DNA of 64,000 bases from a virus (IMGVR_UViG_3300027754_000045:89851-153850), one strand, 5' to 3'. Numbered from the stretch's first letter, positions 2,506 through 64,000 are shown. Notes: generated from the sequence alone by a model not told the origin. Made by a program: numbers and translations.

Positions 2506-5500
2506 GATTTTAATCTTGATTTTGCAAGAATACAAGTATTAGCAGATACTCGTATAAGTGATTTGTGGGTATTAGATACTACAAAAGCAAAACCTGTTGG
2601 TGTTGTTGCTGGGAAGTTTTATGCTCAAAGTGGCATTGATCGTTCTCAAGGAGGTTACACATCTGCTCCTAATGGAAGATTGACAAAATGGGCACAACCA
2701 TTATTTTATACTCCCAGATCTATGGCAGATGTTATTAAAGGAACAACTGCAATTTCTGGCTTATGTGCAAGCCTAACTTATAATAAATTTGGCATTTTAA
2801 AAAATTTAAATTATTTTTATGGTGGACAGACCTCTGGTAGTGAAGGATCGGTTAATATGTCACGCCTATTGAGACTCAAAGAAGGAATAACTGGAGGAAA
2901 AAATGTAATCAAAAGACCGTATTCTTTTAATGATATTAAAACTTTTGGTTTAAGTGCAGGTCATACACTTTTTGGTAATATTAATAGTGATAAAACAGTA
3001 ACTGCTGTAGCAATAGCATACAATAATCCAAACTCTTGGTCTCTAAAAAGAAATATGTTACTAAGTAGTTTAAGTCAAATTGATGAATGGCAATCTTATA
3101 GAGTTTTAAATTATTTAACACCTCTTGCTATTTCCTGGAGATTTCAAAAAGAAATCAGACAAAATAGTATAGGATTTTCAAATAATGTTTCACAAATATC
3201 TGAATCAGAACTTAACGCAGTAAATACAGATACTCTAAATCATCTTAAAATATTATTAGACGAATATAAAGACCATTATCCGCTAGCAAGACCGAATAAC
3301 GGAGTGAATAATACTCTAGGTAGTAACCAAACTTGGCGTGGAGAGGCAACTAGTGGCTATCCTATGGGTCTGTGTGGTTCTTTTGGTGTTCGAACATCTC
3401 CATATCCGTTAGGAGCAACTCTTGATTTTATTCCTGCACTAGGAGTAAACGGAACAACCTTAGATACTTGGTCTCCTCAAGGATGGACAGCAGATACAGG
3501 AATGTATTTATTTGACGGTTGGGGTATGAGATATATTTTAGAAAATATGATATATTTGGACGGAGTAACATCAGTAATAGAACCAGTTACAACAACAACT
3601 CAACTTAAAGCAGATTCTTCGTGGAATAATATTCTTATAGAAGTAAAAAAATTAATGCTTAAAGAAATTTTTGATTATGTGATACACACAGAAGAAGGAA
3701 GAGCCTGGTATGCTAAAAGAAAGTATTGGCCAGACGGTTCAGAGCGAGACTCACTGATTTATGCAGACTCAAACCCAAATCGAATATGGACAGAACAAGC
3801 AACTGGTTTAACAGGAATTAAGTATTATTATAATCATTATTTTAATGGAACTGGTTATTGGTATCCAGAACCAGATAATAAAGGATATGTAGGAACCAAT
3901 CAAAATATTACTCCTATGGCATATCGTATGTTAGCCACAATGTATTTGTATCCTTATATGACACTAGACAAAGAAAGAACTGCTCTTTTATCTGCGTATA
4001 ATATGATGGCAGAAGAATGTGCTTCGGTGTTAGAACGATTTTTAATGGGAGTTACTTCTTCTCAAGAAAATAGTGCTGGATATTGGACGGAAGGTTGGGG
4101 ATATGCTGCACAATCTATGCCAGATTTTTTGAAAATATTAACCTCTATGAAAACTATGGGAGACAGGAGACTATGGGACAAAAAGTCAACTCCAGACTAT
4201 TTCAATAAAACAATACCAGGAATTTCTTATAGTTCTTGGACAAACAATACTTGGAAATGGATCGTTAGTAGAATAATGCCAAATAATTTAATTATTAATT
4301 CTGGATCATGCAATAGTTCTGGATGGGAAACTATAGGCAACTCTTATCAATTTACACCGTGGGGAGTGTATTTAACTGCTGTGAATGCAAGCGAAAGTCC
4401 TACTCCAGGAACCACGGGATCTGCAATTAGCGAACTTCATGATTGGTTTGATAATAACGCAGGATACGAAGAAGAAATTGAATATTTTTACAATGTTAGA
4501 AAATATCAAGAACGTAATACATATAACGAAAAAATTAACACTCCTTGGTTTTACTCTCCAGGGGACTGTATAGTTACTTGGAAGTCGGAACACGTAATAC
4601 CAAAATTTCAAAGTGATTGGACTTACGGAAATAATACAGAAAGACCTGATGGTAAACCAGGATACGTTGTTAATAATTTTAATAAACCTTTAATTTTTGG
4701 TCTTTGGGCTAAGGGCGTAGGAGTTAGTGACGAAAAAACTAATGTTGATTGCGGTCACATTTCTGCTTATTTGGGCGACGCTGCATTACTAATAGAGACT
4801 GGTGAACCTAGACAGTTACTGGAATTTGATAATGATAAAACAAATAACTATTTTTACGAAAGAGAAACTTTCAGGGTAAAAGGACATAATGTTATGCAAT
4901 TGGGAGAAAGACTTGATTACAAGAATCCCAAATATGCTCCTTGGACTGGAGTAACATTTACCGCAACTGGTGGTAGTGCATTTTTAAATGCAACTTCAAA
5001 TTATAATGTTAGACCATTAAAAATAAGTACTCCTCAACCATTGGGTGATAATCGACCTAATCCAAAAGATGGAGGTTTTCCAACATGGGCAGAAAGTGAT
5101 CCTGCCTGGGATAATGTATCTGACGGATTTTTATATCTTGCAGGAACAACACAAATAGCGAATACACGAGGAGGAGATACTGCACAATATTTGGCTCAAT
5201 CCAGTAATATTCTTGGTGGATCAGAAACTATAGACGGAAGAGCTGGTCAATACGTATTTGAGCCGTATCAATACCAAATAAAAACCTGCACAAGAGGTAT
5301 TACCTGGGAATATTCTGCTGGTGTTGCAAAAATTAGAATTCAGGATATTGTGGGAATAAGTGCATTCAACAACAATCCATCGTTCTGGTCAGCAACTGGT
5401 CCGTATGCAACAGGACCAGACACAAGAGTATATTATCGTTTTCATACTGGATATACTGGAGCAAACGATATAGCAGGAAATCCAAGTTCAACTAGTTGGC

Positions 5501-7595: not shown

Positions 7596-8861
7596 ATGAA
7601 ACGTTTTTATAATTATTTTCAGTCTACTGAAACTCCTCCAGGATATGTGGAAGGACAGTATTCTTACGGATCTAGTTTTGTACTGAGTGAATCTTGGCAT
7701 GATTACGCTCAAGGATCCGAATTTACTCTAACAGACAATGATGTTCCTGATCGTGTTTATCGCCACGGAGTCGGTGTGGCTGCAGGACAGTTTCGTGACA
7801 GCAAAGGAAACGTGGTAGCGGTTACAGGAAACAGAAACGAATTACATAATTTGTTTCAGTATCGCCCTCAAGAACAAACCCAATACCCAGAACCACAAAC
7901 CAGAATAGAACGAGAGATTGTTCGAGAAACTGGTATTCCTGGACCCAAAGGAGAGAAGGGTGAAGACGGATGGGCTGGTCCCCAAGGAGAGCGAGGTCCT
8001 CGTGGAGATGATGGCCTTCAGGGTGTTCGGGGTCTACAGGGCATTCAGGGAGATCAGGGTCCTCAAGGGCTAGGCGGAGAACAGGGTGATATTGGTCCTC
8101 AAGGAATACAAGGCGACCAGGGTTCTCAAGGAATACAAGGACCACAGGGTGTTCAGGGAGATCAGGGTCCTCAGGGGCTGGGAGGAGAACAGGGTGCTAT
8201 TGGACCTCAAGGCGAACAGGGTACACAGGGAGAACGGGGTATTCCAGGCATTCAGGGCAAGGACGGCTCACAGGGCATTCAGGGGCTTCCTGGAGCCTCT
8301 GGCAAGGATGGTAAGGACGGCAAAACAGGTAAATCTGGACCTCGTGGAGCCCAAGGAACTCAAGGCAAGGCAGGTCCAAAAGGTGATCAGGGAGTAAAGG
8401 GAGATCAGGGTCCGATTGGTCCAGAAGGTGCTCAAGGAGCCATAGGAGAATCGCCAATATTAACTGCCCAGTATCCTTTGGTATTAGAGGATAATGAACT
8501 AACCTTTGATCCCAAGAAAATACAAGAATTTTTATCTGGTTTAATTAAGAGCAAAAGTGACGCTGATCGAGTCTCCCATAACATGGGACTGATGGCTAGT
8601 TCTGGTGGTGGTGCAGTCGGCATCTATAAGGATAAAGCCAGAATTATTAAATCAGTAAATGATATTAATTTTATTGGTAATAATATTGTGGTAACTCGCA
8701 AAGGCAAACAAGTTGATGTGAGTGTTACTGGAGGAGCAGCAGGAGGAGCATTCTACGAATCCGCTACTAGTCCTATAGCTACTTTAATAGACGGAGATCG
8801 TTGGTGGAATACTAATACAGGTAGACTATATACTTGGATTGGAATTTGGGTTGAAATTTAA
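7596..8861 (+). CDS. Collagen-like (Gly-X-Y) virion fibre protein
   Basis: 58 uninterrupted G-X-Y triplets at 7932-8453; C-terminal GDRWWNTNTGRLYTW fibre motif. Confidence 0.9.
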   Translation: MKRFYNYFQSTETPPGYVEGQYSYGSSFVLSESWHDYAQGSEFTLTDNDVPDRVYRHGVGVAAGQFRDSKGNVVAVTGNRNELHNLFQYRPQEQTQYPEPQTRIEREIVRETGIPGPKGEKGEDGWAGPQGERGPRGDDGLQGVRGLQGIQGDQGPQGLGGEQGDIGPQGIQGDQGSQGIQGPQGVQGDQGPQGLGGEQGAIGPQGEQGTQGERGIPGIQGKDGSQGIQGLPGASGKDGKDGKTGKSGPRGAQGTQGKAGPKGDQGVKGDQGPIGPEGAQGAIGESPILTAQYPLVLEDNELTFDPKKIQEFLSGLIKSKSDADRVSHNMGLMASSGGGAVGIYKDKARIIKSVNDINFIGNNIVVTRKGKQVDVSVTGGAAGGAFYESATSPIATLIDGDRWWNTNTGRLYTWIGIWVEI

Positions 8862-18302: not shown

Positions 18303-19706
18303 ATGAAAGATTTTGAGCATGTCCTTTTAGAAGGACTTCTCTTTCGAGAAGACTTCTACAAGAAAGTTATTCCATTCATTAGTTTGGAATACTTTCATCG
18401 AAACCCAGTGCAGATGTTGTACACCTGCATTCACGACTTTGTTATTCAGTATAACAGTTGTCCTTCAAAAGAGGCAATCAGTATCTGTCTAGAAAAGCAT
18501 AAGGGTATCAGTCAGGCAGACTATGATATCTGCATTGAGATGCTAGAGTCGTTTCAAAAAGAAGAAGCAGACAAACACAACATTGATTGGTTGGTGGAAG
18601 AAACCGAGAAGTTTTGTAAGGAGAAGGCTCTCTACAACGGCATCATGGAATCTATTCACATCATTGACGGCAAGAGCAAGGACAAGACCAAGACGGCTAT
18701 TCCTGACATCTTGAGCAAGGCTTTGTCTGTATCTTTTGACACACATATCGGACACGACTACCTAGAGGATACTGAACTTCGATACGATTTCTATCACAAG
18801 GTAGAGCAACGAGTTCCGTTTGATCTAGAGTACTTGAATACGATTACTGCGGGTGGAACACCAAACAAGACGCTTAATATTGTCATGGCTGGAACTGGTG
18901 TAGGTAAGTCTTTGTTCTTGTGTCATCATGCGGCTAACTGTATCTCGCAGGGCAAGAATGTTCTCTACATTACTTGTGAAATGGCAGAAGAAAGAATTGC
19001 AGAACGCATTGACGCAAATCTATTGGATACTACACTTGATTCCTTGCGTGATCTCAGCAAAGAGGTCTACGACAAAAGAATTGATAACATGAAGCAAACG
19101 GTCAAGGGTAAACTTATTATCAAAGAGTATCCTACTGCAAGTTCTAGTGTGAATCATTTTCGTGTCCTGTTGGATGAGTTGTGGCTGAAGAAGAAGTTTA
19201 AGCCTGATGTAATTTTTATAGATTATTTAAACATCTGTGCATCCTCTAGAATGAAGCAGGGCGCAAATGTAAACTCATACACCTACATCAAAGCCATTGC
19301 AGAAGAACTACGAGGATTAGCCACAGAACGAAACGTTCCTATCTGGTCAGCCACGCAGGTTAATCGTATTGGCTTTGGTAATTCAGATTTTGGTCTGGAA
19401 GACACCAGCGAATCGTTTGGTCTTCCTGCTACTGCTGACTTTATGATTGCCTTGATTGCCACAGAACGCCTAGATGAGATCAATCAAATTATGGTTAAAC
19501 AGTTAAAGAATCGATACAACGACACCGTGGCTAATCGTAAGTTTGTGCTTGGTATCAATCGATCCAAGATGAAGTTGTACGACATTCCAAAGTCGGAACA
19601 GCCTCAGTTATCGGACAGCAATCCACAAGATGCTCCTGATAATGATGAAGATCGATTTAACAGTAAGTTCAAGAAATCAAGTAAGTTTACAGGATGGAAA
19701 GTATGA
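18303..19706 (+). CDS. gp41: Replicative helicase (T4 gp41-like)
   Basis: AGTGVGKS, EMAEERIAERIDAN, DYLNIC, ESFGLPATAD, QLKNRY. Confidence 0.97.
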   Translation: MKDFEHVLLEGLLFREDFYKKVIPFISLEYFHRNPVQMLYTCIHDFVIQYNSCPSKEAISICLEKHKGISQADYDICIEMLESFQKEEADKHNIDWLVEETEKFCKEKALYNGIMESIHIIDGKSKDKTKTAIPDILSKALSVSFDTHIGHDYLEDTELRYDFYHKVEQRVPFDLEYLNTITAGGTPNKTLNIVMAGTGVGKSLFLCHHAANCISQGKNVLYITCEMAEERIAERIDANLLDTTLDSLRDLSKEVYDKRIDNMKQTVKGKLIIKEYPTASSSVNHFRVLLDELWLKKKFKPDVIFIDYLNICASSRMKQGANVNSYTYIKAIAEELRGLATERNVPIWSATQVNRIGFGNSDFGLEDTSESFGLPATADFMIALIATERLDEINQIMVKQLKNRYNDTVANRKFVLGINRSKMKLYDIPKSEQPQLSDSNPQDAPDNDEDRFNSKFKKSSKFTGWKV

Positions 19707-43591: not shown

Positions 43592-43976
43592 TATTCATTT
43601 ACGATGATCGTAATATAATTATATTATTAAAAATTATTTTTACGCTTCCTGTCATACCTGTTATTTTTTTCAGCAGGAGTCAATTTAGCAAGTTCACTTC
43701 CGTACCATCGGAAAAACCATAATCTTTCTTTTTGTTTATTTGAAAGTTTTTTTACTGGAGGCTTTTTACCCATATTTTTGAGTTGTTTATTTGGTTCCAT
43801 AATCAAATCCTTGTATTCATTTACGATCATCGTAATATAATCAAACCCTTACGATCATCGTAATATAATCAAACTCTTTACGATCATCGTAATATAATCA
43901 TACCCTTACGACCATCGTAATATAATCATACCCTTACGACCATCGTAATATAATCATACCCTTACGACCATCGTAA
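43592..43976. repeat. 28-bp repeat containing the palindrome TTACGA-N3-TCGTAA (6 tandem copies plus 1 detached)
   Basis: Palindromes at 43599, 43821, 43849, 43878, 43906, 43934 and 43962. Confidence 0.97.
43627..43800 (-). CDS. Small basic protein between repeat copies
   Basis: AAGGA RBS then MEPNKQLKNMGKK. Confidence 0.5.
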   Translation of the reverse strand: MEPNKQLKNMGKKPPVKKLSNKQKERLWFFRWYGSELAKLTPAEKNNRYDRKRKNNF

Positions 43977-43980
43977 ACCA

Positions 43981-44280
43981 TTAGTGCCACTTACGACCCT
44001 TCATACCATTATAACGGTCAAACTTATGGTGGCTGCTCTCAGGCGTAGCCGCCTTCATACGAGTCATAAGTTCACTCCACCGCCCACCAGTCATCTTGTC
44101 GGGTGTCAGGTTATGATCTGCCCCTAGTTGTGGCGTACAATCAGCCCAAGACTTGTGGACGCATTTCCTAGCCTTACATTTTGGGCAGGGTTGTTTCAGC
44201 GGTAATTCAGAGTTTGCCATCGTCTGGAAATCTTCCCAAATATGTTGGCATTTACGGCATTCATAATTATAATTCGGCAT
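43981..44280 (-). CDS. FmdB-like zinc-ribbon protein
   Basis: MPNYNYECRKC..CPKC. Confidence 0.85.
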   Translation of the reverse strand: MPNYNYECRKCQHIWEDFQTMANSELPLKQPCPKCKARKCVHKSWADCTPQLGADHNLTPDKMTGGRWSELMTRMKAATPESSHHKFDRYNGMKGRKWH

Positions 44281-44532
44281 GATGTATATATCTGTTCTTG
44301 TGGGAAATCTTTAGAGAACTAAGACCCATAACAAACATACATCCGATAACGCAAAAGTCAAGGGGAACTAACCACGAATTTTATGGGACGCTGCGTCAAC
44401 TATCAACAATCGCCGACCCCAGAGCGCAGCCGTCTGGACGCAGGGCAAGCAGAACCAAGTTATATTAATATATCCAACAGCACCCCCCTGAAGCCTTCGA
44501 GCCATAGTAAACTCTAATTTTGAAGGAACTGG

Positions 44533-51495: not shown

Positions 51496-51750
51496 TCATC
51501 GTCTGCGTTCATTGATTGCCGTTGCCCTTCGTATGTTTTCCTTGTCTGCTGAATTGATCAATACAAGTTCGGGTGCTGTTTTATGTGACCAGTCCATGAA
51601 GCCAACATATCCTGTAGCCTTAGAACATTTCACACAAGTGTCTGTGTCAGGCAGACACTCTAATCGAGATTCTCCAATATCATTTCCGCATTCTATACAA
51701 TGTTTCAACAATGCCATCCTTTCGTGAATGATTGCTTGATTGTTTTGCAT
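51496..51750 (-). CDS. DksA/TraR-type C4 zinc-finger protein
   Basis: CIECGNDIGESRLECLPDTDTCVKC; start may be 51717. Confidence 0.8.
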   Translation of the reverse strand: MQNNQAIIHERMALLKHCIECGNDIGESRLECLPDTDTCVKCSKATGYVGFMDWSHKTAPELVLINSADKENIRRATAINERRR

Positions 51751-57727: not shown

Positions 57728-58104
57728 GTTGGCTCTTTGTAGTCTGTTATGATGTCTGATATGCTACATTGTCGGATTATATCTTCCACGGCTTGGGTTG
57801 GAGTCGTGCCGTGTCCCACTATGCCTTTGAATGTGTCTTTCAAACACGCATCACGCTTACGCTTCGCAATGTAGGAAACACTCTCTTGTATACGCATAAA
57901 CATCATAAATTCCGTATTCTGTCCTGTGCTTTCAGAGATAAGCCACTCAAGATGGTTCACCGCACTTTCTTTGGTTGTACCATGTCCGACTAGATCATCG
58001 TGCTGTAGCGACAGGGCAAGGAATGTGGTAACCTTTACGATATCAAAACCGTAGGTGGCACTATAAACATTGTCATCAGGATATGGGTAGGATTTGTCGA
58101 TCAT
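57724..58104 (-). CDS. Protein with two HicB-like motifs
   Basis: LVGHGTTKESAVNHL and IVGHGTTPTQAVEDI. Confidence 0.65.
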   Translation of the reverse strand: MIDKSYPYPDDNVYSATYGFDIVKVTTFLALSLQHDDLVGHGTTKESAVNHLEWLISESTGQNTEFMMFMRIQESVSYIAKRKRDACLKDTFKGIVGHGTTPTQAVEDIIRQCSISDIITDYKEPT

Positions 58105-58268
58105 TTGAACGCCTCTTGCAACTGAATGTACTTCCATTCTTCGCCGCCCAGTCTGTCATGCCAACACACTTCTTCTACGGCTTCCTGCGTAGGGTAGGCA
58201 GAGTGGGGTTGCCATTCTCCCCAAATACGGCTCTGCTCGTCTAGTCTGCGAACTAATAATAAAAACAT
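58101..58268 (-). CDS. Small hypothetical protein (55 aa)
   Basis: TAATG and ATGA overlaps; GAAAGG RBS. Confidence 0.6.
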   Translation of the reverse strand: MFLLLVRRLDEQSRIWGEWQPHSAYPTQEAVEEVCWHDRLGGEEWKYIQLQEAFK

Positions 58269-58570
58269 TATTTGCCACCTTTCTTGTTAAGTTGTTGGTC
58301 TAGATCATGTAGTGCGCCTTCACGAGTATCGCCACGACCTACGCAGTCGTTTTCACCGTCTTGAAATGCCACCCACCAACGAGATTCCGACAAGCGTATC
58401 TTGCAGTCTTGCCATACGATCTCGTCCATTGAGTTGCGATTGTACTCCCTGACGGCTTGGCGCAGATTGGCTTCGGCTTCCGACGAAGTGCCGCCTGTGC
58501 CAACCAAGCCATCTTCCTGTCGTGCTTCGAATACAATGTGTTCTAGAATGTGTTTTTGTGCAGTTGTCAT
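58268..58570 (-). CDS. Protein with two HicB-like motifs
   Basis: LVGTGGTSSEAEANL and CVGRGDTREGALHDL. Confidence 0.65.
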   Translation of the reverse strand: MTTAQKHILEHIVFEARQEDGLVGTGGTSSEAEANLRQAVREYNRNSMDEIVWQDCKIRLSESRWWVAFQDGENDCVGRGDTREGALHDLDQQLNKKGGK

Positions 58571-58618
58571 ATTAGTGTAACGCTTTCTTTGTTGGAGTGT
58601 GACAGAATAAAATTAAAA

Positions 58619-59068
58619 TTATCCGTTTTGCTCATAAGAGTTGTGGTGAAGGTGAAGTTCGGTGCGCCAATCGTAGGTGGCAGGGTCGTTACCGTCCCAA
58701 TGACCGTCATTAACAGTAACACCACAGCGACGATCCATGAGTTGGGCTTCCTGTTGGGCTTCAGAGCCATCATAGGGATTAACAGAATAAAAGTCTGCGA
58801 GTCGGCGTGTGGACTCCTCTTGATTCAGGATCATGGTGTCACCTTCTACCTCTGCCACCGCAGTCCACATGAGGCGGCAACAAGCCATGTCTAACTCGTC
58901 GGTAAACCAATAGAGTACATCACGAAACAGGCGATCTGTGCCGAATCGAAATACCGCTTTGCAGTATCCGTCACCATCATGTCCTGCTGAGTGCAGGGGA
59001 CGAAGGCGAGCATTGCGTGAGGCAAAGGTCTGGGCGAAGTCAGAGTATTGTGAGAGTGTTGGAGTCAT
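58619..59068 (-). CDS. Hypothetical early protein
   Basis: AAGGA RBS before MTPTLSQ; alternative start 59104. Confidence 0.7.
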   Translation of the reverse strand: MTPTLSQYSDFAQTFASRNARLRPLHSAGHDGDGYCKAVFRFGTDRLFRDVLYWFTDELDMACCRLMWTAVAEVEGDTMILNQEESTRRLADFYSVNPYDGSEAQQEAQLMDRRCGVTVNDGHWDGNDPATYDWRTELHLHHNSYEQNG

Positions 59069-59118
59069 TGTGTTCCTTGAGTGGGGTGCGATTTTGGCGA
59101 ACATTCGCCGTTTTGAGC

Positions 59119-59147
59119 ATCTTAACCGCAGTTTGCCCCTTTGTCAA
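59119..59147 (-). promoter_or_regulatory. sigma70 promoter
   Basis: TTGACA-17-TAAGAT. Confidence 0.7.
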
Positions 59148-59194
59148 GTGGTAAATGAAGATTTTTAAAAGATTTTTAAGGTGTCAGACTGTAT

Positions 59195-59242
59195 AAAGTG
59201 GGGCAGTATGGGGCGAAGTGGGGGTGTGGGATAATATGTGGA
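59195..59242 (+). repeat. 10-bp-phased TGGGG repeats
   Basis: TGGGG at 59199, 59209 and 59219; TGGAG at 59239. Confidence 0.8.
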
Positions 59243-59269
59243 GTTTTAGCCGAAAATAGGGGTAAGAGT

Positions 59270-59436
59270 CTGAGGGTCAACTCGCAGCCCCTAGCAGCCC
59301 TCTCAGAGGCTCTCAGATGCCCTCAGAAGCGTCCGTAGCCTTTTTCCCGCCCTCAGCACCCCTCAGCCCTGCAACGCCGCCCTGCGGCTTTAGATACGCT
59401 CTGCCACGATCTGAGGAATCTGAGAAATCTGCGAAA
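59270..59436. repeat. Helically phased CTCAG/CTGAG repeats
   Basis: CTCAG at 59302, 59312, 59322, 59352, 59362; CTGAG at 59270, 59411, 59420; CTGCG at 59429. Confidence 0.85.
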
Positions 59437-59452
59437 TTATTTAAAATTTCTC

Positions 59453-59480
59453 TTGACTTCCCCAAATTCCGCTGTATACT
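59453..59480 (+). promoter_or_regulatory. Lone + strand sigma70 promoter
   Basis: TTGACT-16-TATACT with an AT-rich upstream element. Confidence 0.65.
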
Positions 59481-59596
59481 GTGAGCAGACGCAGAAGTGC
59501 TACGGCTGTCCTCTGAGCGCACCGAGTTATCGGACTCCGTGGCGGCAGGGGGCGACTATCAACATTCGAGTCCGATAACTCGAATAATAATAAAAT

Positions 59597-59643
59597 AAAA
59601 AAGCCTCATCTCGGTGGCTCTAAGTCAGAGTCGGATGAGGCTT
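59597..59643 (-). terminator. Rho-independent terminator
   Basis: AAGCCTCATC..GATGAGGCTT stem plus T6. Confidence 0.75.
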
Positions 59644-59817
59644 GGGCAGGTGTGGCAGACACTCGCCTGAACTGGGATTTATACCCCGCCTGACGATTTT
59701 CCCCCTGTTGAGGGTACTTGGCGAAACAACGCAGGGTGAACAGGTGTTGCTGACACCCATGACAGAGCAGATAGGTGTTGTTTATAAGCACTCACCTACA
59801 AGGTTTTTGTATTCGTG

Positions 59818-60141
59818 TCATTTGCCGACCCTCACAGTATAGTATCCCACAGGATAATTCTTCTTTGCACAGGCTGTTCCGATATAGAACCAACCCTGAT
59901 CCCATGAATCAGACTCCTCAGCCAATACCGCATCGGCTGGCATGATCTCCTGATTCACCGTCATGTGAACCATCATAGCCGTCTTGAGGGACTTGTCCGA
60001 GATAGGCTTGCCACAGCAATGGCATTGCTGCTTCGTGACCCTCTTATGAACAGCGTACTCCTGCGCTCTAGAAGGACGCTTGGCAGGGACGCAGACGATA
60101 AGGTTTCCGTTGATGTCTTTGAGTGTTGGGTGAGTTTGCAT
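59818..60141 (-). CDS. Putative zinc-binding early protein
   Basis: CHCCGK..IGTAC. Confidence 0.7.
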   Translation of the reverse strand: MQTHPTLKDINGNLIVCVPAKRPSRAQEYAVHKRVTKQQCHCCGKPISDKSLKTAMMVHMTVNQEIMPADAVLAEESDSWDQGWFYIGTACAKKNYPVGYYTVRVGK

Positions 60142-60226
60142 ACTGTTAGAACGCTTTCGTTAGAGGATTGTGACAGCAATTCCGAAACATTTCCAAAGGG
60201 GCTGGCAAACGCTGCCATCCCCCAGT

Positions 60227-60255
60227 AGTATACACCATGTTCAGGTGGTTGTCAA
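60227..60255 (-). promoter_or_regulatory. sigma70 promoter
   Basis: TTGACA-17-TATACT with extended -10 TG. Confidence 0.85.
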
Positions 60256-60370
60256 GTGAGAAATTAAATTATTATTGTAGCGTCTGATAACTTCAGCCGT
60301 CCCATAACTCCCCTGCGACTATCAACTTTTCGCCGCCGAGTCCGATAACTCTGGCGAAATAATAATAAAT

Positions 60371-60404
60371 AAAAAACCCCCCTGCTGTTTTACGAGCAGG
60401 GGGG
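60371..60404 (-). terminator. Rho-independent terminator
   Basis: CCCCCCTGCT/AGCAGGGGGG stem plus T6. Confidence 0.9.
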
Positions 60405-60431
60405 TCAGACCTTTTAAAGATCGTCGAGGGG

Positions 60432-61403
60432 TCAGGCGTTCACCGCCATCCACGCTTCAGCCTGAGCGTAGGCTTTCTGCTTGATGTTCGAGCCTACCCC
60501 GAACAGGTTAGACTCCATGCGAAGGCTGTCATTGCTGTCCTCGCCCTTCACAGTACGCTCATGGTCGCACCATTGCGTCACCGCATTCACCGCTGCCCAA
60601 AGTGAACCCGCAGACTTCACGCTTGTCTGCTTGGTGTCCACCCAAAGGTTGGTACGCCACGCATCGAGAACCTGCTCGTAGCGTGTATTGCCACGACCCT
60701 GTGCCTTTGGCGTTCCGTTCATGCTGTTGTACACTTCTTGGAAGAAGGTATCAGCACTAGCCGTAGTCACTTCACGCTGTGCCAAACTGTTGCAGAACGA
60801 ATTGAAAGATGCTGCCTGACCCATTCCTGCTTCCACCCATTGCTGAATCATGGCAAACCTTGCTTTGCTGCCTGATCCGTGGCGAATTGATGCAGTATCA
60901 ATGCTGCCCTTCATACCCGCCAACGCCATCATGTAGGTGTTTTGGCAGATAATACGAACCGAGTTCAAGCCACCTGTGGTAGCCTGTGTGCAGTCATGGC
61001 TAGTGCCAAGAAAGAACCGATTCGATACGGTGTCACGCTCATCGCCGCCGATGTTGCACTCGCCAAGATCAACCTGAAAGAACACACGCTTGCCGCCATT
61101 GAGTGAACCAACCTGAACGCAACTAGTACCACTAAAGTTAGTGATTTCATAGCACAATTCGGCAAGTTCATGGTTTTGGATGCTAGTGTAGCCATCCTTA
61201 GCCACCGCAAACACCGAGCCTGTGTCCTCACGAACGATGGCACGATAATCGCCACCGCTGAACGCAGCACCATCCGCACCACACGCCACGATGGGAAGAG
61301 TAGCCACAGTCCAATCCAAACCCGCCTTCTTCATGATTGAGATGGGGTCAGCGGTGAGGGTGGAACGGTCAGCATCAGTAACATTGTAAAGTTGAATCGA
61401 CAT
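60432..61403 (-). CDS. DUF932 (TIGR03299 phage/plasmid-like) protein
   Basis: AGLDWTV, Y..IQN, GSLNGGKRVF, SHD, VRIICQNT, IRH, GSLWAAVNAVT..DH. Confidence 0.9.
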   Translation of the reverse strand: MSIQLYNVTDADRSTLTADPISIMKKAGLDWTVATLPIVACGADGAAFSGGDYRAIVREDTGSVFAVAKDGYTSIQNHELAELCYEITNFSGTSCVQVGSLNGGKRVFFQVDLGECNIGGDERDTVSNRFFLGTSHDCTQATTGGLNSVRIICQNTYMMALAGMKGSIDTASIRHGSGSKARFAMIQQWVEAGMGQAASFNSFCNSLAQREVTTASADTFFQEVYNSMNGTPKAQGRGNTRYEQVLDAWRTNLWVDTKQTSVKSAGSLWAAVNAVTQWCDHERTVKGEDSNDSLRMESNLFGVGSNIKQKAYAQAEAWMAVNA

Positions 61404-61463
61404 TAGTATCTCCTGAAAGAGTTGAGTGAGAAGTGTCAGAAGGAACTTCCTGCTGACTCACAC

Positions 61464-61493
61464 AGTATAACGCATTCGGGGATTGAATGTGAC
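61464..61493 (-). promoter_or_regulatory. Early promoter, second class (GTCACA-18-TATACT)
   Basis: GTCACATTCAATCCCC..CGTTATACT. Confidence 0.75.
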
Positions 61494-61636
61494 TGTGTGT
61501 GAGATTATTTTTTATTTTTTCTTGTCTATTATTATACAGGAACATCTAGTCCGATAACTTGTGCCGAGTCCGATAACCCCTGTGACTATCAACACACCGC
61601 TCCTGAGTCCGATAACTCGGTCTTGGGCGGGGCAGC

Positions 61637-61671
61637 AAAAAACCCCCCTGCCCTGTTGGGGGCAGAGGGGT
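61637..61671 (-). terminator. Rho-independent terminator
   Basis: GC stem plus T6. Confidence 0.85.
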
Positions 61672-61705
61672 GGTCACACCCGTGATCTTTTCCGATCCTC
61701 CTAGT

Positions 61706-62179
61706 TTACTTCTTGATGTACTCCGTGATGTACCCGCTGATTGTGCCGTCACCGTTCACAATGCCCTTGCCATAGGCTTCGATCAGCCAAGCCATTGCTT
61801 CTCCGATCTTGTTCAACTGCTCCACATTGAGCGTGTTCATGAACTCCTTTGCCGCCCATGCCGTCATCTCATCACCGCTGTGGCTGAACACAACCAATTT
61901 CATTCCAATATGGGAACTATAGAACTCAGGGAAAATCTCCATCGAGATGTTCTCAGGTGAACCGTCGAATGTCTTACCAAACAACTCATTCTCAGGATCA
62001 CAGGCAAATTTGAACCCATCCTGATTAGCGTTATCCTTCAACAGCAACTCATCGCCTACTTCGTGATCCGAACCATCCAAGAAGAATGGAGATTCGAGCA
62101 GGTTGACCACATGGTTGTACATTCGTGAAGCGATTGACTTCTTGTTTGCCATAGTATTGATGTCTGTGAGAGAGAACAT
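61706..62179 (-). CDS. Hypothetical early protein
   Basis: GAAAGG RBS before MFSLTD. Confidence 0.75.
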   Translation of the reverse strand: MFSLTDINTMANKKSIASRMYNHVVNLLESPFFLDGSDHEVGDELLLKDNANQDGFKFACDPENELFGKTFDGSPENISMEIFPEFYSSHIGMKLVVFSHSGDEMTAWAAKEFMNTLNVEQLNKIGEAMAWLIEAYGKGIVNGDGTISGYITEYIKK

Positions 62180-62231
62180 TAGTAGCCTTTCTGAAAGAGG
62201 AAGTGAGCGGCAACACCTTGTTGCCTTCATC

Positions 62232-62261
62232 AGTATAACGATTATGGGGATTGAATGTGAC
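62232..62261 (-). promoter_or_regulatory. Early promoter, second class (GTCACA-18-TATACT)
   Basis: Same conserved block as 61464-61493. Confidence 0.75.
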
Positions 62262-62344
62262 ACCGCATATAAAAAAAAATAAAATTATTATCGAGTCCTA
62301 TAACTTCCAGAGTCCGATAACCCCATGGTGACTATCAACAAGCC

Positions 62345-62374
62345 AAAAAAATGTCCCCCCCCGAAGGGAGGGAC
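62345..62374 (-). terminator. Rho-independent terminator
   Basis: GC stem with TTCG loop plus T7. Confidence 0.85.
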
Positions 62375-62394
62375 GAGGCGAACCTCTTTGTTGC

Positions 62395-62724
62395 TTATTG
62401 CACACAGTCTTCATCATCCAAGTCCTCGACGGCTTCGTCGAGTTCTCCAAGCACCTTTGTTGCAGGTTCGACACTCCAACGGCTTGGTCGCTCTGCACGG
62501 TACTTGATTCGCTCAATCATCATTTTCGCCTTCTCAATCTGACACTCCAACAGGTCAATCTTGTCCTGCTGCTGACGCAGCACCACCCAAGCGTGAGCCT
62601 TCGCATTCTCGTGACGCTTGATCTTGTCCTCCATCTCCTCCTGTGTGGAGGAATCGGTGAAGAACGGAACGATTACGACAGGCTCGACGGTGGTGACGGT
62701 TGTGATTTGAATGTAGTCTTGCAT
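62395..62724 (-). CDS. Hypothetical coiled-coil protein
   Basis: AAGGA RBS. Confidence 0.7.
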   Translation of the reverse strand: MQDYIQITTVTTVEPVVIVPFFTDSSTQEEMEDKIKRHENAKAHAWVVLRQQQDKIDLLECQIEKAKMMIERIKYRAERPSRWSVEPATKVLGELDEAVEDLDDEDCVQ

Positions 62725-62785
62725 TTTGGTTTCCTTTATGGAAGAAGTGGCGGAGCAGCCCCGTGGCTTACTCCGCCCACCCTCT

Positions 62786-63040
62786 TTAGTCCTTTTCCTT
62801 GAATGTGTTGTTCGCCATGAACACCTGAAGTGATGGCAACGCCTGAATCAAACGCTCCCATTGTCCCTTGTACAGCGTGACAGGGAAACGACCCAAGCCG
62901 TAGACGCTTAAAGCACCCTTCTCAGACACCTTGAAGCCGATTGGCTTGAAGTTTGTTGCCGCCTTGAGAGCAGCGTTCTCCACCGCCGCTGCCTTGAGAG
63001 CAGCGTTCTCCGCCATTAACTGTTGTAATTGATCAGACAT
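62786..63040 (-). CDS. Conserved small protein (KVSEKGALSVYGLGRFPVTLY family)
   Basis: GAAAGG RBS; ENAALKAA duplicated with a 30-bp period. Confidence 0.8.
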   Translation of the reverse strand: MSDQLQQLMAENAALKAAAVENAALKAATNFKPIGFKVSEKGALSVYGLGRFPVTLYKGQWERLIQALPSLQVFMANNTFKEKD

Positions 63041-63093
63041 TTGTAACCTTTCATAAAGAGTTGAGTGAGGGTCAGCACCTTGCTGACTTCATC

Positions 63094-63123
63094 AGTATAA
63101 CGACTTCGGGGATTGCGTGTGAC
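63094..63123 (-). promoter_or_regulatory. Early promoter, second class (GTCACA-18-TATACT)
   Basis: GTCACACGCAATCCCC..CGTTATACT. Confidence 0.75.
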
Positions 63124-63206
63124 ACCGTGCCTGTAAAAAAAATAAAATTATTATCCAGTCCTATAACTTCCAGCGTCCCATAACTCGTGGTGACTATCAA
63201 CATCCC

Positions 63207-63244
63207 AAAAAAAATCCCCCCCGCCAACATACGGCGGGAGGGAT
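63207..63244 (-). terminator. Rho-independent terminator
   Basis: GC stem plus T tract. Confidence 0.85.
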
Positions 63245-63307
63245 CAGGGGGTTGTCGGTGGGGGGAGGGGGGGCGGCTACGATGCCGTGCCCCCCTGCCT
63301 GACACCA

Positions 63308-63691
63308 TTAGGCGATGGTTCGCAGACCCTGTGACCAAGCCACCAAGCGGCGGCTTGAGCCGTTCTCGACACGCAAGTGTCGTCGCTTCATGCGACTTAG
63401 TGGGTCGCTCTGCGGTGCGCCTACGAGCAGGTCAATACCTGCCCACTCGCTTCTATAGCGAGAGCCAAATTGGGTGCGAGCAGCCGCCTTGAGAGCGGAT
63501 CGGAAGATGTTGCCTCGTTGAGCAACCATTGTGCAAGCCCATGCGAGGCTGTTTGCCTCGTCTGAATCCAACTTTCTTGGCTGAACAACAATGTGAGCGG
63601 CAAATTCGCCCACAAGAGTGAGGCGGTGAAACGCCTCTTGGTTAGGGGTGCGGAAGGGGTTCGGACGGTTGTTGAGATTGAGTAGTGTCAT
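63308..63691 (-). CDS. Hypothetical early protein
   Basis: Leaderless ATG 6 nt after TACAAT. Confidence 0.7.
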   Translation of the reverse strand: MTLLNLNNRPNPFRTPNQEAFHRLTLVGEFAAHIVVQPRKLDSDEANSLAWACTMVAQRGNIFRSALKAAARTQFGSRYRSEWAGIDLLVGAPQSDPLSRMKRRHLRVENGSSRRLVAWSQGLRTIA

Positions 63692-63697
63692 GTCACC

Positions 63698-63727
63698 ATT
63701 GTAACGCAATTGGGGATTGAATGTGAC
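63698..63727 (-). promoter_or_regulatory. Early promoter, second class (GTCACA-18-TACAAT), leaderless
   Basis: Same conserved block. Confidence 0.75.
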
Positions 63728-63923
63728 GCAGGGTCAAATAAAAAAAATAATAATGGGGGGTGTCCTGTCCGAACAGTAAAATGGGTTATGGGACTCCCAA
63801 CGAGCCTCTGGGGCTAGCACACAGACTCGCAAGTGGCAAAGGACGGCAAACCACGCAGACCCCCCATCCCCATACCCCCCTATTTGATTTTCATGGATCC
63901 CCCTCTGGAAATTTTTTTTTTTT

Positions 63924-63931
63924 TATAAATA
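63924..63931 (+). promoter_or_regulatory. T4-type late promoter TATAAATA
   Basis: 4 nt before GTG 63936. Confidence 0.7.
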
Positions 63932-63935
63932 TATC

Positions 63936-64000
63936 GTGCTATCCTTTATCCAATACCTCGCAGAAGCTAAAACTGCAATGGAGCGCATAGAGAGTCGTGC
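63936..64000 (+). CDS. 3'-partial putative internal head protein
   Basis: MLSFIQYLAEAKTAMERIESR, a capsid-targeting-like N-terminus. Confidence 0.6.
   Translation, partial: MLSFIQYLAEAKTAMERIESR

Follow-up and report, generated by a model that had tools for sequence, protein, structure and literature searches.

Arrays of two conserved words between shuffled early-gene cassettes of a T4-like virus genome: candidate docking sites for a sequence-specific protein

At the end of a virus genome, short transcription units follow one another on the - strand and are separated, joint after joint, by arrays of two small sequence words, box A and box B. The question which this locus raises is what these words are there for. 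The window analysed here, a stretch of 64,000 nucleotides, comprises bases 89,851–153,850, i.e., the last 64 kb, of the 153,850-bp IMG/VR virus record IMGVR_UViG_3300027754_000045; positions are those of the window unless a relative is named. An initial annotation had described the locus as a modular early-gene cassette system and had proposed the boxes as binding platforms for a protein or, alternatively, as recombination sites of an integron-like gene array. The explanation that we favour, with moderate confidence, is that the region represents a hyperplastic arm of early genes in a distant T4-type myovirus, built from units of the promoter-early stem-loop (PeSL) type, and that the box arrays would be docking sites for one or more sequence-specific proteins by which the early units are controlled or insulated.

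With the pattern GTCYBATAAC, 14 exact matches to box A were obtained in the window where 0.61 were expected, a number that was reached in none of 100 shuffled sequences. Eleven of them are on the + strand (59570, 60282, 60299, 60340, 61549, 61568, 61607, 62295, 62312, 63158, 63175), two are inverted (59526, 63785) and the fourteenth, at 19607, lies within the gene of a DnaB-like helicase and is a chance copy. Box B, GACTATCAAC, matched five times (59554, 60317, 61584, 62330, 63192) against 0.11 expected in the window. The thirteen copies of box A and the five of box B in the initial annotation are all exact and far above chance, and the spacings given there (17–19 from A to A, 16–18 from A to B) are correct. 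The whole 153,850-bp genome contains no exact copies beyond those of the window, and with one mismatch permitted only one more cluster appears, at 44323–44407. While the positions of box B had been annotated properly, its extent had not: the conserved word is 14 nt long, T-GTTGATAGT-Y-R-C-M, with a C at position +12 in 101 of 101 copies, although this position was outside of the search pattern. Box A reads R-TTAT-N-R-GAC, usually with TC next, and comprises 10–12 nt. Its positions 6–7 are variable, as uncontacted bases would be, and the edges of conservation of the boxes are sharp.

Relatives were found by means of a gapped pattern (box B, 5–10 nt, box A), which retrieved one viral contig with 13 arrays (L101) and 51 metagenome stretches, 11 of which contained 2–6 matches. 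After removal of one duplicate, 20 related loci without redundancy, viral or metagenomic, remained, which together contain 81 arrays. In IMG/VR, searches with exact 14- and 16-mers from box A and from the promoter core gave mostly single chance matches. Among 185,579 bacterial and archaeal genomes, one per species, no array was detected, but only 15 single matches at chance level. The arrays are specific to this phage family. Two joints with the order A-B-A-A could be compared between orthologous positions, namely the joint between the gene of cargo family F1 and the gene for a DUF932 protein (seven loci) and the joint after the DUF932 gene (six loci). The box columns at these joints are 96.9% and 95.8% identical, the spacer columns 71.5% and 57.6%, with indels, and the third codon positions of the adjoining DUF932 gene 61.7%. 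The calling of boxes at one mismatch or fewer introduces some ascertainment bias into these values, yet none of the four boxes is missing from any orthologous joint. The promoters beside the boxes have been swapped wholesale between lineages (TTGACAcggtg..., TCACATTCAATCCCC..., ctactcaacttcccc... and others), with lineage-specific -35 and spacer sequences, whereas the boxes are unchanged.

These comparisons bear directly on the simplest explanation, according to which one intergenic module was duplicated again and again and the boxes are its passive, functionless remnants. In the window, arrays 4 and 5 do look like recent duplicates (78–94% identity over 50–83 nt). Remnants should, as already pointed out in the initial annotation, be no better kept than the spacers between them; the opposite was observed, with 96–97% identity for boxes against 58–72% for spacers and 62% for third codon positions. 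The boxes moreover outlast complete promoter replacement, and their order is kept at orthologous joints across lineages. An origin as mere remnants is in our view scarcely credible; judged by these alignments, the boxes are under strong purifying selection.

The constancy of the boxes where promoters were replaced, together with an identity exceeding that of spacers and third codon positions, makes a binding platform the best reading of these selected sites, as the initial annotation had suggested. It appears likely that the boxes are protein-binding sites. That they serve the coordinate control or the insulation of early units is put forward more tentatively, and the direction of the effect, be it repression, a roadblock or activation, is conjecture. 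According to this proposal, PeSL-type units would be gained, lost and reordered by T4-type homologous recombination, and a second layer would be laid over them in the form of packed arrays of two asymmetric words, B and A, between the hairpin of one unit and the next AT tract. On double-stranded DNA, these arrays would dock one or two sequence-specific proteins, of which a phage-encoded protein with an unrecognised fold seems the most likely candidate and a host factor a possible one. A bound array at each joint might put an end to read-through, or shield or silence the promoter that follows, and all early units would be controlled at once, through either shut-off or insulation.

The geometry of the arrays specifies this proposal further. 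Every array comes after a GC-rich hairpin. Box B starts 4–6 nt past the T-run in 20 of the 26 cases that have a T-run and 0–7 nt past the hairpin foot where there is none, and many hairpins are without a U-run. In contrast, the distance from the last box to the TTGAC -35 element ranges from 15 to 58 bp, without helical phasing (R = 0.06–0.13 at 10–11 bp, n = 49). The arrays are tied more tightly to the upstream hairpin than to the downstream promoter and belong at least equally to the 3′ end of the preceding unit. A Class-I-type activator was rejected, as the boxes are out of helical phase with the -35 hexamer. Start-to-start distances within arrays are 16 (38 cases) to 18 from B to A and 17 from A to A (25 cases), so that the sites lie only 3–7 bp apart. 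The commonest architectures among the 81 arrays are BA (20), ABAA (14) and BAA (7), and others end in inverted A-like boxes beside the AT tract. Relative to transcription, B is found in a single orientation (101 forward, approximately none in reverse, and never inverted); A mostly has one orientation as well and is inverted in about one sixth of its copies, at defined places. The first promoter of the zone has only a single inverted box, here denoted as 'a' (63785–63794, - strand). It is located in a divergent spacer, about 58 nt ahead of this promoter, and marks where the cassette zone begins. In five relatives (L101, L147, L154, L163, L166), this box is found within the same conserved block.

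The fixed orientation raises the possibility that the boxes act in RNA, where B and A, contained in read-through transcripts, would be linear signals used in processing or in the loading of a factor onto RNA polymerase, similar to nut/boxA. The position of B shortly past the hairpin foot or the T-run would also suit such a role, and transcription from a + strand promoter at 59453 would yield an A box in sense. However, most transcripts would exclude the array where a full terminator stands ahead of it, of the inverted 'a' boxes the first and those close to a promoter are wrongly oriented or lie in untranscribed DNA, and the boxes of a Zn-ribbon gene in the lineage of the 146-kb relative G2 overlap the promoter itself. 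An action in RNA is considered quite improbable. The location of the first 'a' box in a divergent, apparently untranscribed spacer and the occurrence of A in both orientations rather support an action on the level of DNA.

A second group of alternatives concerns the movement of the cassettes. Order and combination of the cargo families differ among the 20 loci, which bears out the modular early-gene cassette system of the initial annotation. F0, the most widespread cargo family (11 loci), comes first in the window, in L142 and in L163 and is located mid-array in L101, L130 and L139, and F4 precedes F1 in the window and is second in L101. Ends of homology blocks are enriched 50–100 nt downstream of the arrays, i.e., in the promoter and the 5′ untranslated region (UTR; 56 vs. 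20 for random positions), and depleted inside the arrays (9 vs. 19). For F11/F12, compared between L163 and L101, homology begins at the ribosome site and ATG and stops at the stop codon. On this evidence, cargo junctions are mostly located at the 5′ UTR and the stop codon and not in the boxes.

Recombination sites or portable homology anchors for cassette exchange, in an integron-like or extended PeSL scheme, would nevertheless explain several features of the arrays. B-A is the only conserved block downstream of each cargo gene, the 5′ UTR would be the other arm, and the terminator hairpins differ between cassettes, hence B-A is the first shared sequence past the stop codon. The arrays are situated at the 3′ boundary of every cassette and the first joint contains a different single box, a layout reminiscent of attI and attC. 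Between the window and L163, one clean indel of two cassettes could be traced to a segment of 15 nt with box B in it, and site-specific recombination was left open by the authors who described PeSLs. Like an integron, the locus is a row of small exchangeable single-gene units with a recurring element at their 3′ ends and another, distinct one where the array begins. Unlike the promoterless cassettes of an integron under a common Pc, the units here are each equipped with a promoter and a terminator. The boxes are direct repeats and not imperfect palindromes which, like attC, fold in single-stranded DNA, an inverted pair being present only in array 1, and the junctions fall outside of the boxes. 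No tyrosine or serine recombinase (PF00589, PF00239) was found in the whole genome, while control genomes were positive. Homogenisation by gene conversion would not spare the spacers of 3–7 nt, which vary and carry indels, and selection for evolvability would be but a weak means of holding 14 nt invariant. A role in recombination is unlikely on these grounds, and the term integron-like is not supported for the locus.

If the boxes are docking sites for a protein, it has to be asked which protein this could be. A host protein would be an obvious candidate, either as a regulator that drives or times early transcription or as a factor, e.g., DnaA, which is titrated by the arrays as a decoy. This would be in accordance with the lack of any recognisable phage-encoded sequence-specific DNA-binding protein and with the same boxes being present in lineages with different promoters. 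The consensus of the DnaA box is TTATCCACA, and box B on the + strand shares seven of its nine positions. Its two mismatches, in all 101 copies, concern position 1 and the fixed C of the relaxed consensus TTWTNCACA; the likeness noted in the initial annotation is confined to box B, the invariance of which spans 14 nt and extends well past a DnaA box, whereas box A shares TTATC only. Likenesses to sites of DnaA, IHF, Fis, Fur, Ter and tetO, judged by eye, each fail at conserved positions, and none was used as evidence. Furthermore, the B-A composite is present in none of the 185,579 prokaryote genomes, and its information content is far above that of typical sites of global host regulators. We therefore see a host protein as a distinctly unlikely partner.

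A docking site for a phage-encoded protein, which we prefer, has to face a number of observations that weigh against it. No match to MotA, AsiA, HTH_3 or RHH_1 was found in the genome. Pfam searches with 52 small open reading frames (ORFs) yielded no DNA-binding regulator family, but Zn_ribbon_8, a DksA/TraR-type zinc finger, GIY-YIG with NUMOD3, WYL_2, PD-(D/E)XK and others. Neither Pfam nor PHROGs revealed a regulator among the cassette proteins and the neighbouring small proteins, and sequence searches of the PDB were empty. The widespread F0 protein, with homologues that amount to 7 representatives among 1.8 billion proteins and are confined to this phage group, does not suggest itself as the binder, with an AlphaFold model of five helices that has no fold match in the PDB and with its absence from G2. 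The Zn-ribbon gene is common in T4-like contigs without upstream boxes, as seen in the contexts of metagenomic homologues from IMG/VR. At the cassettes, the arrays are positioned upstream of the AT tract and off the core promoter, and the 15–58 bp to the -35 element without phasing argue against a classic activator and agree poorly with simple repression. B is almost wholly invariant, more strictly so than the sites of usual operator sets, and its fixed orientation relative to transcription would suit an RNA-level or enzyme-type role.

Some proteins encoded near the arrays are mentioned here as observations. A DksA/TraR-type zinc-finger protein is among the early genes of the window (51499–51750, - strand), and its homologue in G2 (143237–143677) is inside the cassette zone; it is possible that this protein modulates the host RNA polymerase at these promoters. 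An HNH-like endonuclease candidate of 139–147 aa, recognised by eye, is encoded in G2 between two arrays (3713–4156) and in G0 elsewhere, on the + strand (7777–8196). The window also encodes a GIY-YIG endonuclease with NUMOD3.

The only cluster outside of the cassette zone is the degenerate array (B, a, TTGACT, A, A) at 44323–44407 on the - strand, upstream of a gene for a 99-aa Zn-ribbon protein of the FmdB family (43984–44280). Counterparts were found at the orthologous gene of G2 and in L198–L201. In L199–L201, which are close kin of G2, the Zn-ribbon gene has a good promoter with A boxes lying across its -35 hexamer, start site and 5′ UTR, which by position is an operator-like geometry. 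From its context, the Zn-ribbon gene is to be seen as regulated by the boxes in this lineage, rather than as the gene of an obvious binder; with many T4-like contigs carrying the gene without boxes, its protein is not a specific partner. Directly past this gene (43600–43985, - strand), a 15-bp palindrome, TTACGA-N3-TCGTAA, is repeated in tandem in 6–7 copies with a 28-bp period, in an array that includes hexamers similar to TATGAT and TTGATT. A related TTACGAA repeat occurs at the matching place in G2 (about 4560–4700), with one copy within a G2 box array. Copies of box B in the G2 lineage may have an A at position 10. In the G2/L158 lineage, box B is present as the variant GTTGATAGTA, after which A boxes are often missing; in their place, a third word, TGTTAAGATT (and GTTAAATTAA), is repeated in either orientation (L006 (G2) 3106 and 5873; L158 7915–10538). 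The code apparently has additional letters that are specific to lineages.

Within the window, the order of elements at the joints described by the initial annotation agrees with the sequence and with a consensus scan for terminators and promoters: on the - strand, a hairpin terminator is followed by the boxes (B-A-A or A-B-A-A), an AT-rich tract, the promoter, a 5′ hairpin, a conserved UTR with ribosome site and the gene. The promoters are of the sigma70 type, four with GTCACA-18-TATACT/TACAAT and one with TTGACA-17-TATACT. The cargo comprises seven genes in five units, of which the DUF932 gene alone has a family (Pfam, PHROG). All features in the following are on the - strand, and the intrinsic terminators as well as P2 and P3 are given as located by the scan.

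Promoter P0 (63698–63727; GTCACA, 18 nt, TACAAT) opens the run. The ATG of cassette 1 is located 7 nt past the -10 hexamer without a ribosome site (63689–63703), which makes its mRNA probably leaderless; the first units of relatives have a normal leader. Cassette 1 encodes the 127-aa protein of family F0 (63308–63691), without Pfam or PHROG match, and is followed by its terminator (63213–63245) and by array 5 (63158–63201), a B-A-A array of exact box matches. Promoter P1 (63094–63123; GTCACA, 18 nt, TATACT), with a 5′ leader hairpin and the conserved UTR, precedes cassette 2 (62395–63040), which consists of an 84-aa gene, F4 (62786–63040), and a 109-aa gene, F17 (62395–62724), with a conserved hairpin and no boxes between them. 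A second type of conserved hairpin, with an outer GC stem and an inner AGCC-ACGG-GGCT, was seen after several cargo genes (62745–62790 in the window; 2687, 4398 and 5680 in L101) and is without T-run and boxes when located between two genes of one unit. The terminator of cassette 2 (62353–62374) is succeeded by array 4 (B-A-A, exact matches, 62295–62339), promoter P2 (62232–62261) and cassette 3, a 157-aa protein of family F1 (61706–62179) that is kept in the main lineage. Its terminator (61642–61671) and array 3 (A-B-A-A, 61549–61616, with orthologous arrays in seven loci) lead to promoter P3 (61464–61493) and to cassette 4 with the DUF932 protein of 323 aa, family F2 (60432–61403; PF06067, E 9e-33; phrog_1221). 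The terminator of cassette 4 (60375–60406), array 2 (A-B-A-A, 60282–60349, orthologous in six loci) and promoter P4 (60227–60255; TTGACA, 17 nt, TATACT) come next. Cassette 5 contains the 107-aa gene F18 (59818–60141), which L101, L163 and L148 lack; in these, the promoter runs directly into a non-coding stretch.

This stretch of 237 nt (59583–59819, - strand), with a terminator hairpin at 59603–59641 and a T-run at its end, is a candidate for an early non-coding RNA. It is about 97% identical in four relatives, while the neighbouring genes reach only about 80%, and counterparts are located at 8700–8936 in L101, 5380–5617 in L163 and 550–789 in L148. Its fold has a z-score of -2.1, and no covariation was seen, the changes being too few. 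An Rfam search of the region, including this stretch, gave no match. Array 1 (A-B-a, 59526–59579, - strand), the last of the run, has an inverted pair inside; it follows a terminator and is without a promoter of the same direction after it. Instead, a convergent promoter on the + strand (59453–59480; TTGACT, 16 nt, TATACT), which is conserved in relatives, fires into it. Transcription from there would continue antisense to the candidate RNA, and the transcript would hold a 15-bp perfect inverted repeat (59523–59537/59568–59582) around box B. Dense CTCAG and CCCTCAG words occupy 59250–59420, after G-rich TGGGG repeats at 59195–59242, and a G-rich stretch at 63868–63888 is partly complementary to this run, as an inverted repeat.

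Among the cargo of relatives, the only family matches were Cas_VVA1548, DUF7178 and GP88. The Cas_VVA1548 (Csx16-like) protein is encoded in the first cassette of L101 (1191–1523; PF09652, E 5.5e-17), and it is plausible that it is an anti-CRISPR ring nuclease.

The nature of the carrier can be deduced from the remaining genes. Its DNA polymerase is of the family-B gp43 type (47% identity at 100% coverage to a cyanomyophage gp43), a tail sheath, a DnaB-like helicase and a ribonucleotide reductase are encoded, and TATAAATA motifs, the T4 late-promoter word, precede + strand genes just past the junction. By these markers the virus is a distant T4-type myovirus. Among cultured phages, a DNA search gave no close relative, and the polymerase match is likewise not close. 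The last 152 bases of the record equal its first 152 with one mismatch, so that the assembly can be closed into a circle, in keeping with a permuted genome of the T4 type; the idea that this is the first-entering DNA finds no support in such a genome. The cassette zone opens a long - strand block extending to the left of the junction. Several independent assemblies (G0, G1, G2, L198–L201) break in or beside the cassette zone or the Zn-ribbon array, which fits local repeats and population heterogeneity.

The zone also differs in base composition, having about 50% G+C (window 58000–64000) against 36% for the genome. The same jump of 13–18 points recurs in G1 (about 40–48 kb; 49% vs. about 36%) and G2 (132–146 kb plus 1–4 kb; 55–57% vs. 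about 38%). A chimeric assembly as its cause is ruled out by this juxtaposition in three independent contigs, with the zone being internal in G1. A gene pool in common with elements of higher G+C content or an avoidance of AT-binding silencers are possibilities.

The known system closest to this locus is the PeSL array. In its published form, a PeSL consists of a stem-loop, an AT-rich region, -35 and -10 elements, a Shine-Dalgarno (SD) sequence and the ATG, and PeSLs are clustered in hyperplastic regions next to indels (PMC4122927). Crossovers in PeSL mini-circles lie between the -10 hexamer and the ATG (Arbiol 2010, PMC2839356), and PeSLs have been described in RB49/phi1, T4/PST and KVP40/nt-1 (Arbiol 2010, PMC2839356; Comeau 2014, PMC4122927). 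The locus presented here is likewise carried by a T4-type myovirus, its unit is likewise a stem-loop terminator, AT-rich tract, sigma70-like early promoter, SD and ATG, and its units cluster in a hyperplastic region of small ORFans that are mostly without known family. Indels, replacements and reordering of cargo between relatives, with crossovers from promoter to ATG, are also in common. By its layout, the cassette system can with high confidence be regarded as a PeSL array and is, contrary to the initial annotation, not an undescribed system; only the box arrays are new. They are not mentioned in the published PeSL descriptions (PMC2839356, PMC4122927), and a literature search for four box words returned chance primer matches only. 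What sets the locus apart is an array of 35–80 bp of two invariant words between stem-loop and AT tract, the retention of these words across lineages even where the promoter type changed, and a zone whose G+C content exceeds that of the remaining genome by 13–18 points.

This difference matters for how such regions are understood. Early hyperplastic regions are the store in which T4-type phages keep fast-evolving genes for host takeover and probably for anti-defence, the cargo here including DUF932 and, in L101, the putative Csx16-like ring nuclease. PeSLs account for the shuffling of these genes, but they do not explain how strong units, dozens of them in tandem, stay independent and are shut off together. 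A two-word code of high information content at every joint, constant across lineages with swapped promoters, points to a trans-acting factor with an unrecognised DNA-binding fold. Such a factor, if found, would regulate or insulate the early transcription of a large group of uncultured phages from samples that are apparently freshwater lakes. The boxes could also be used as a sequence tag for islands of early anti-defence genes in metagenomes.

Two more distant systems offer a comparison for the arrays themselves. The global operator sets of plasmid RK2, KorA (OA) and KorB (OB), are palindromes which are bound by known dimeric plasmid-encoded proteins. As in the box arrays, two kinds of high-information sites are found there at many first-expressed operons and at variable distance from the promoter, an arrangement that permits a burst of expression followed by coordinate shut-down. 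Unlike the RK2 sites, the boxes are asymmetric, tandem and tied to terminators, and a binder is known only for RK2. The second system is the roadblock terminator of eukaryotic RNA polymerase I (Pol I), with Sal boxes for TTF-I, or a Reb1 site, and a T-rich release element, the sites serving both termination and promoter protection. The comparison is one of analogy only: here, too, oriented sites stand just past a release element at the end of a tandem unit and before the next promoter, while polymerase and domain of life are different and binding is only proposed for the boxes. The geometry is doubtful in one respect, as a block at B would halt the bacterial RNA polymerase before the hairpin is complete. 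Along this line, hairpin and B/A array might together be a dedicated cassette-boundary device, an idea which we advance with considerable reserve. One or more phage proteins on the oriented boxes would form a polar transcription barrier or insulator and, where the promoter is overlapped, an operator, and antisense transcription would be kept out of the zone at either end by the inverted 'a' boxes. If true, each early, probably anti-defence, gene would be a fully autonomous plug-in unit, and the arrays would be the counterpart in bacterial viruses of the Pol I roadblock terminators, a kind of element undescribed in bacteria or phages.

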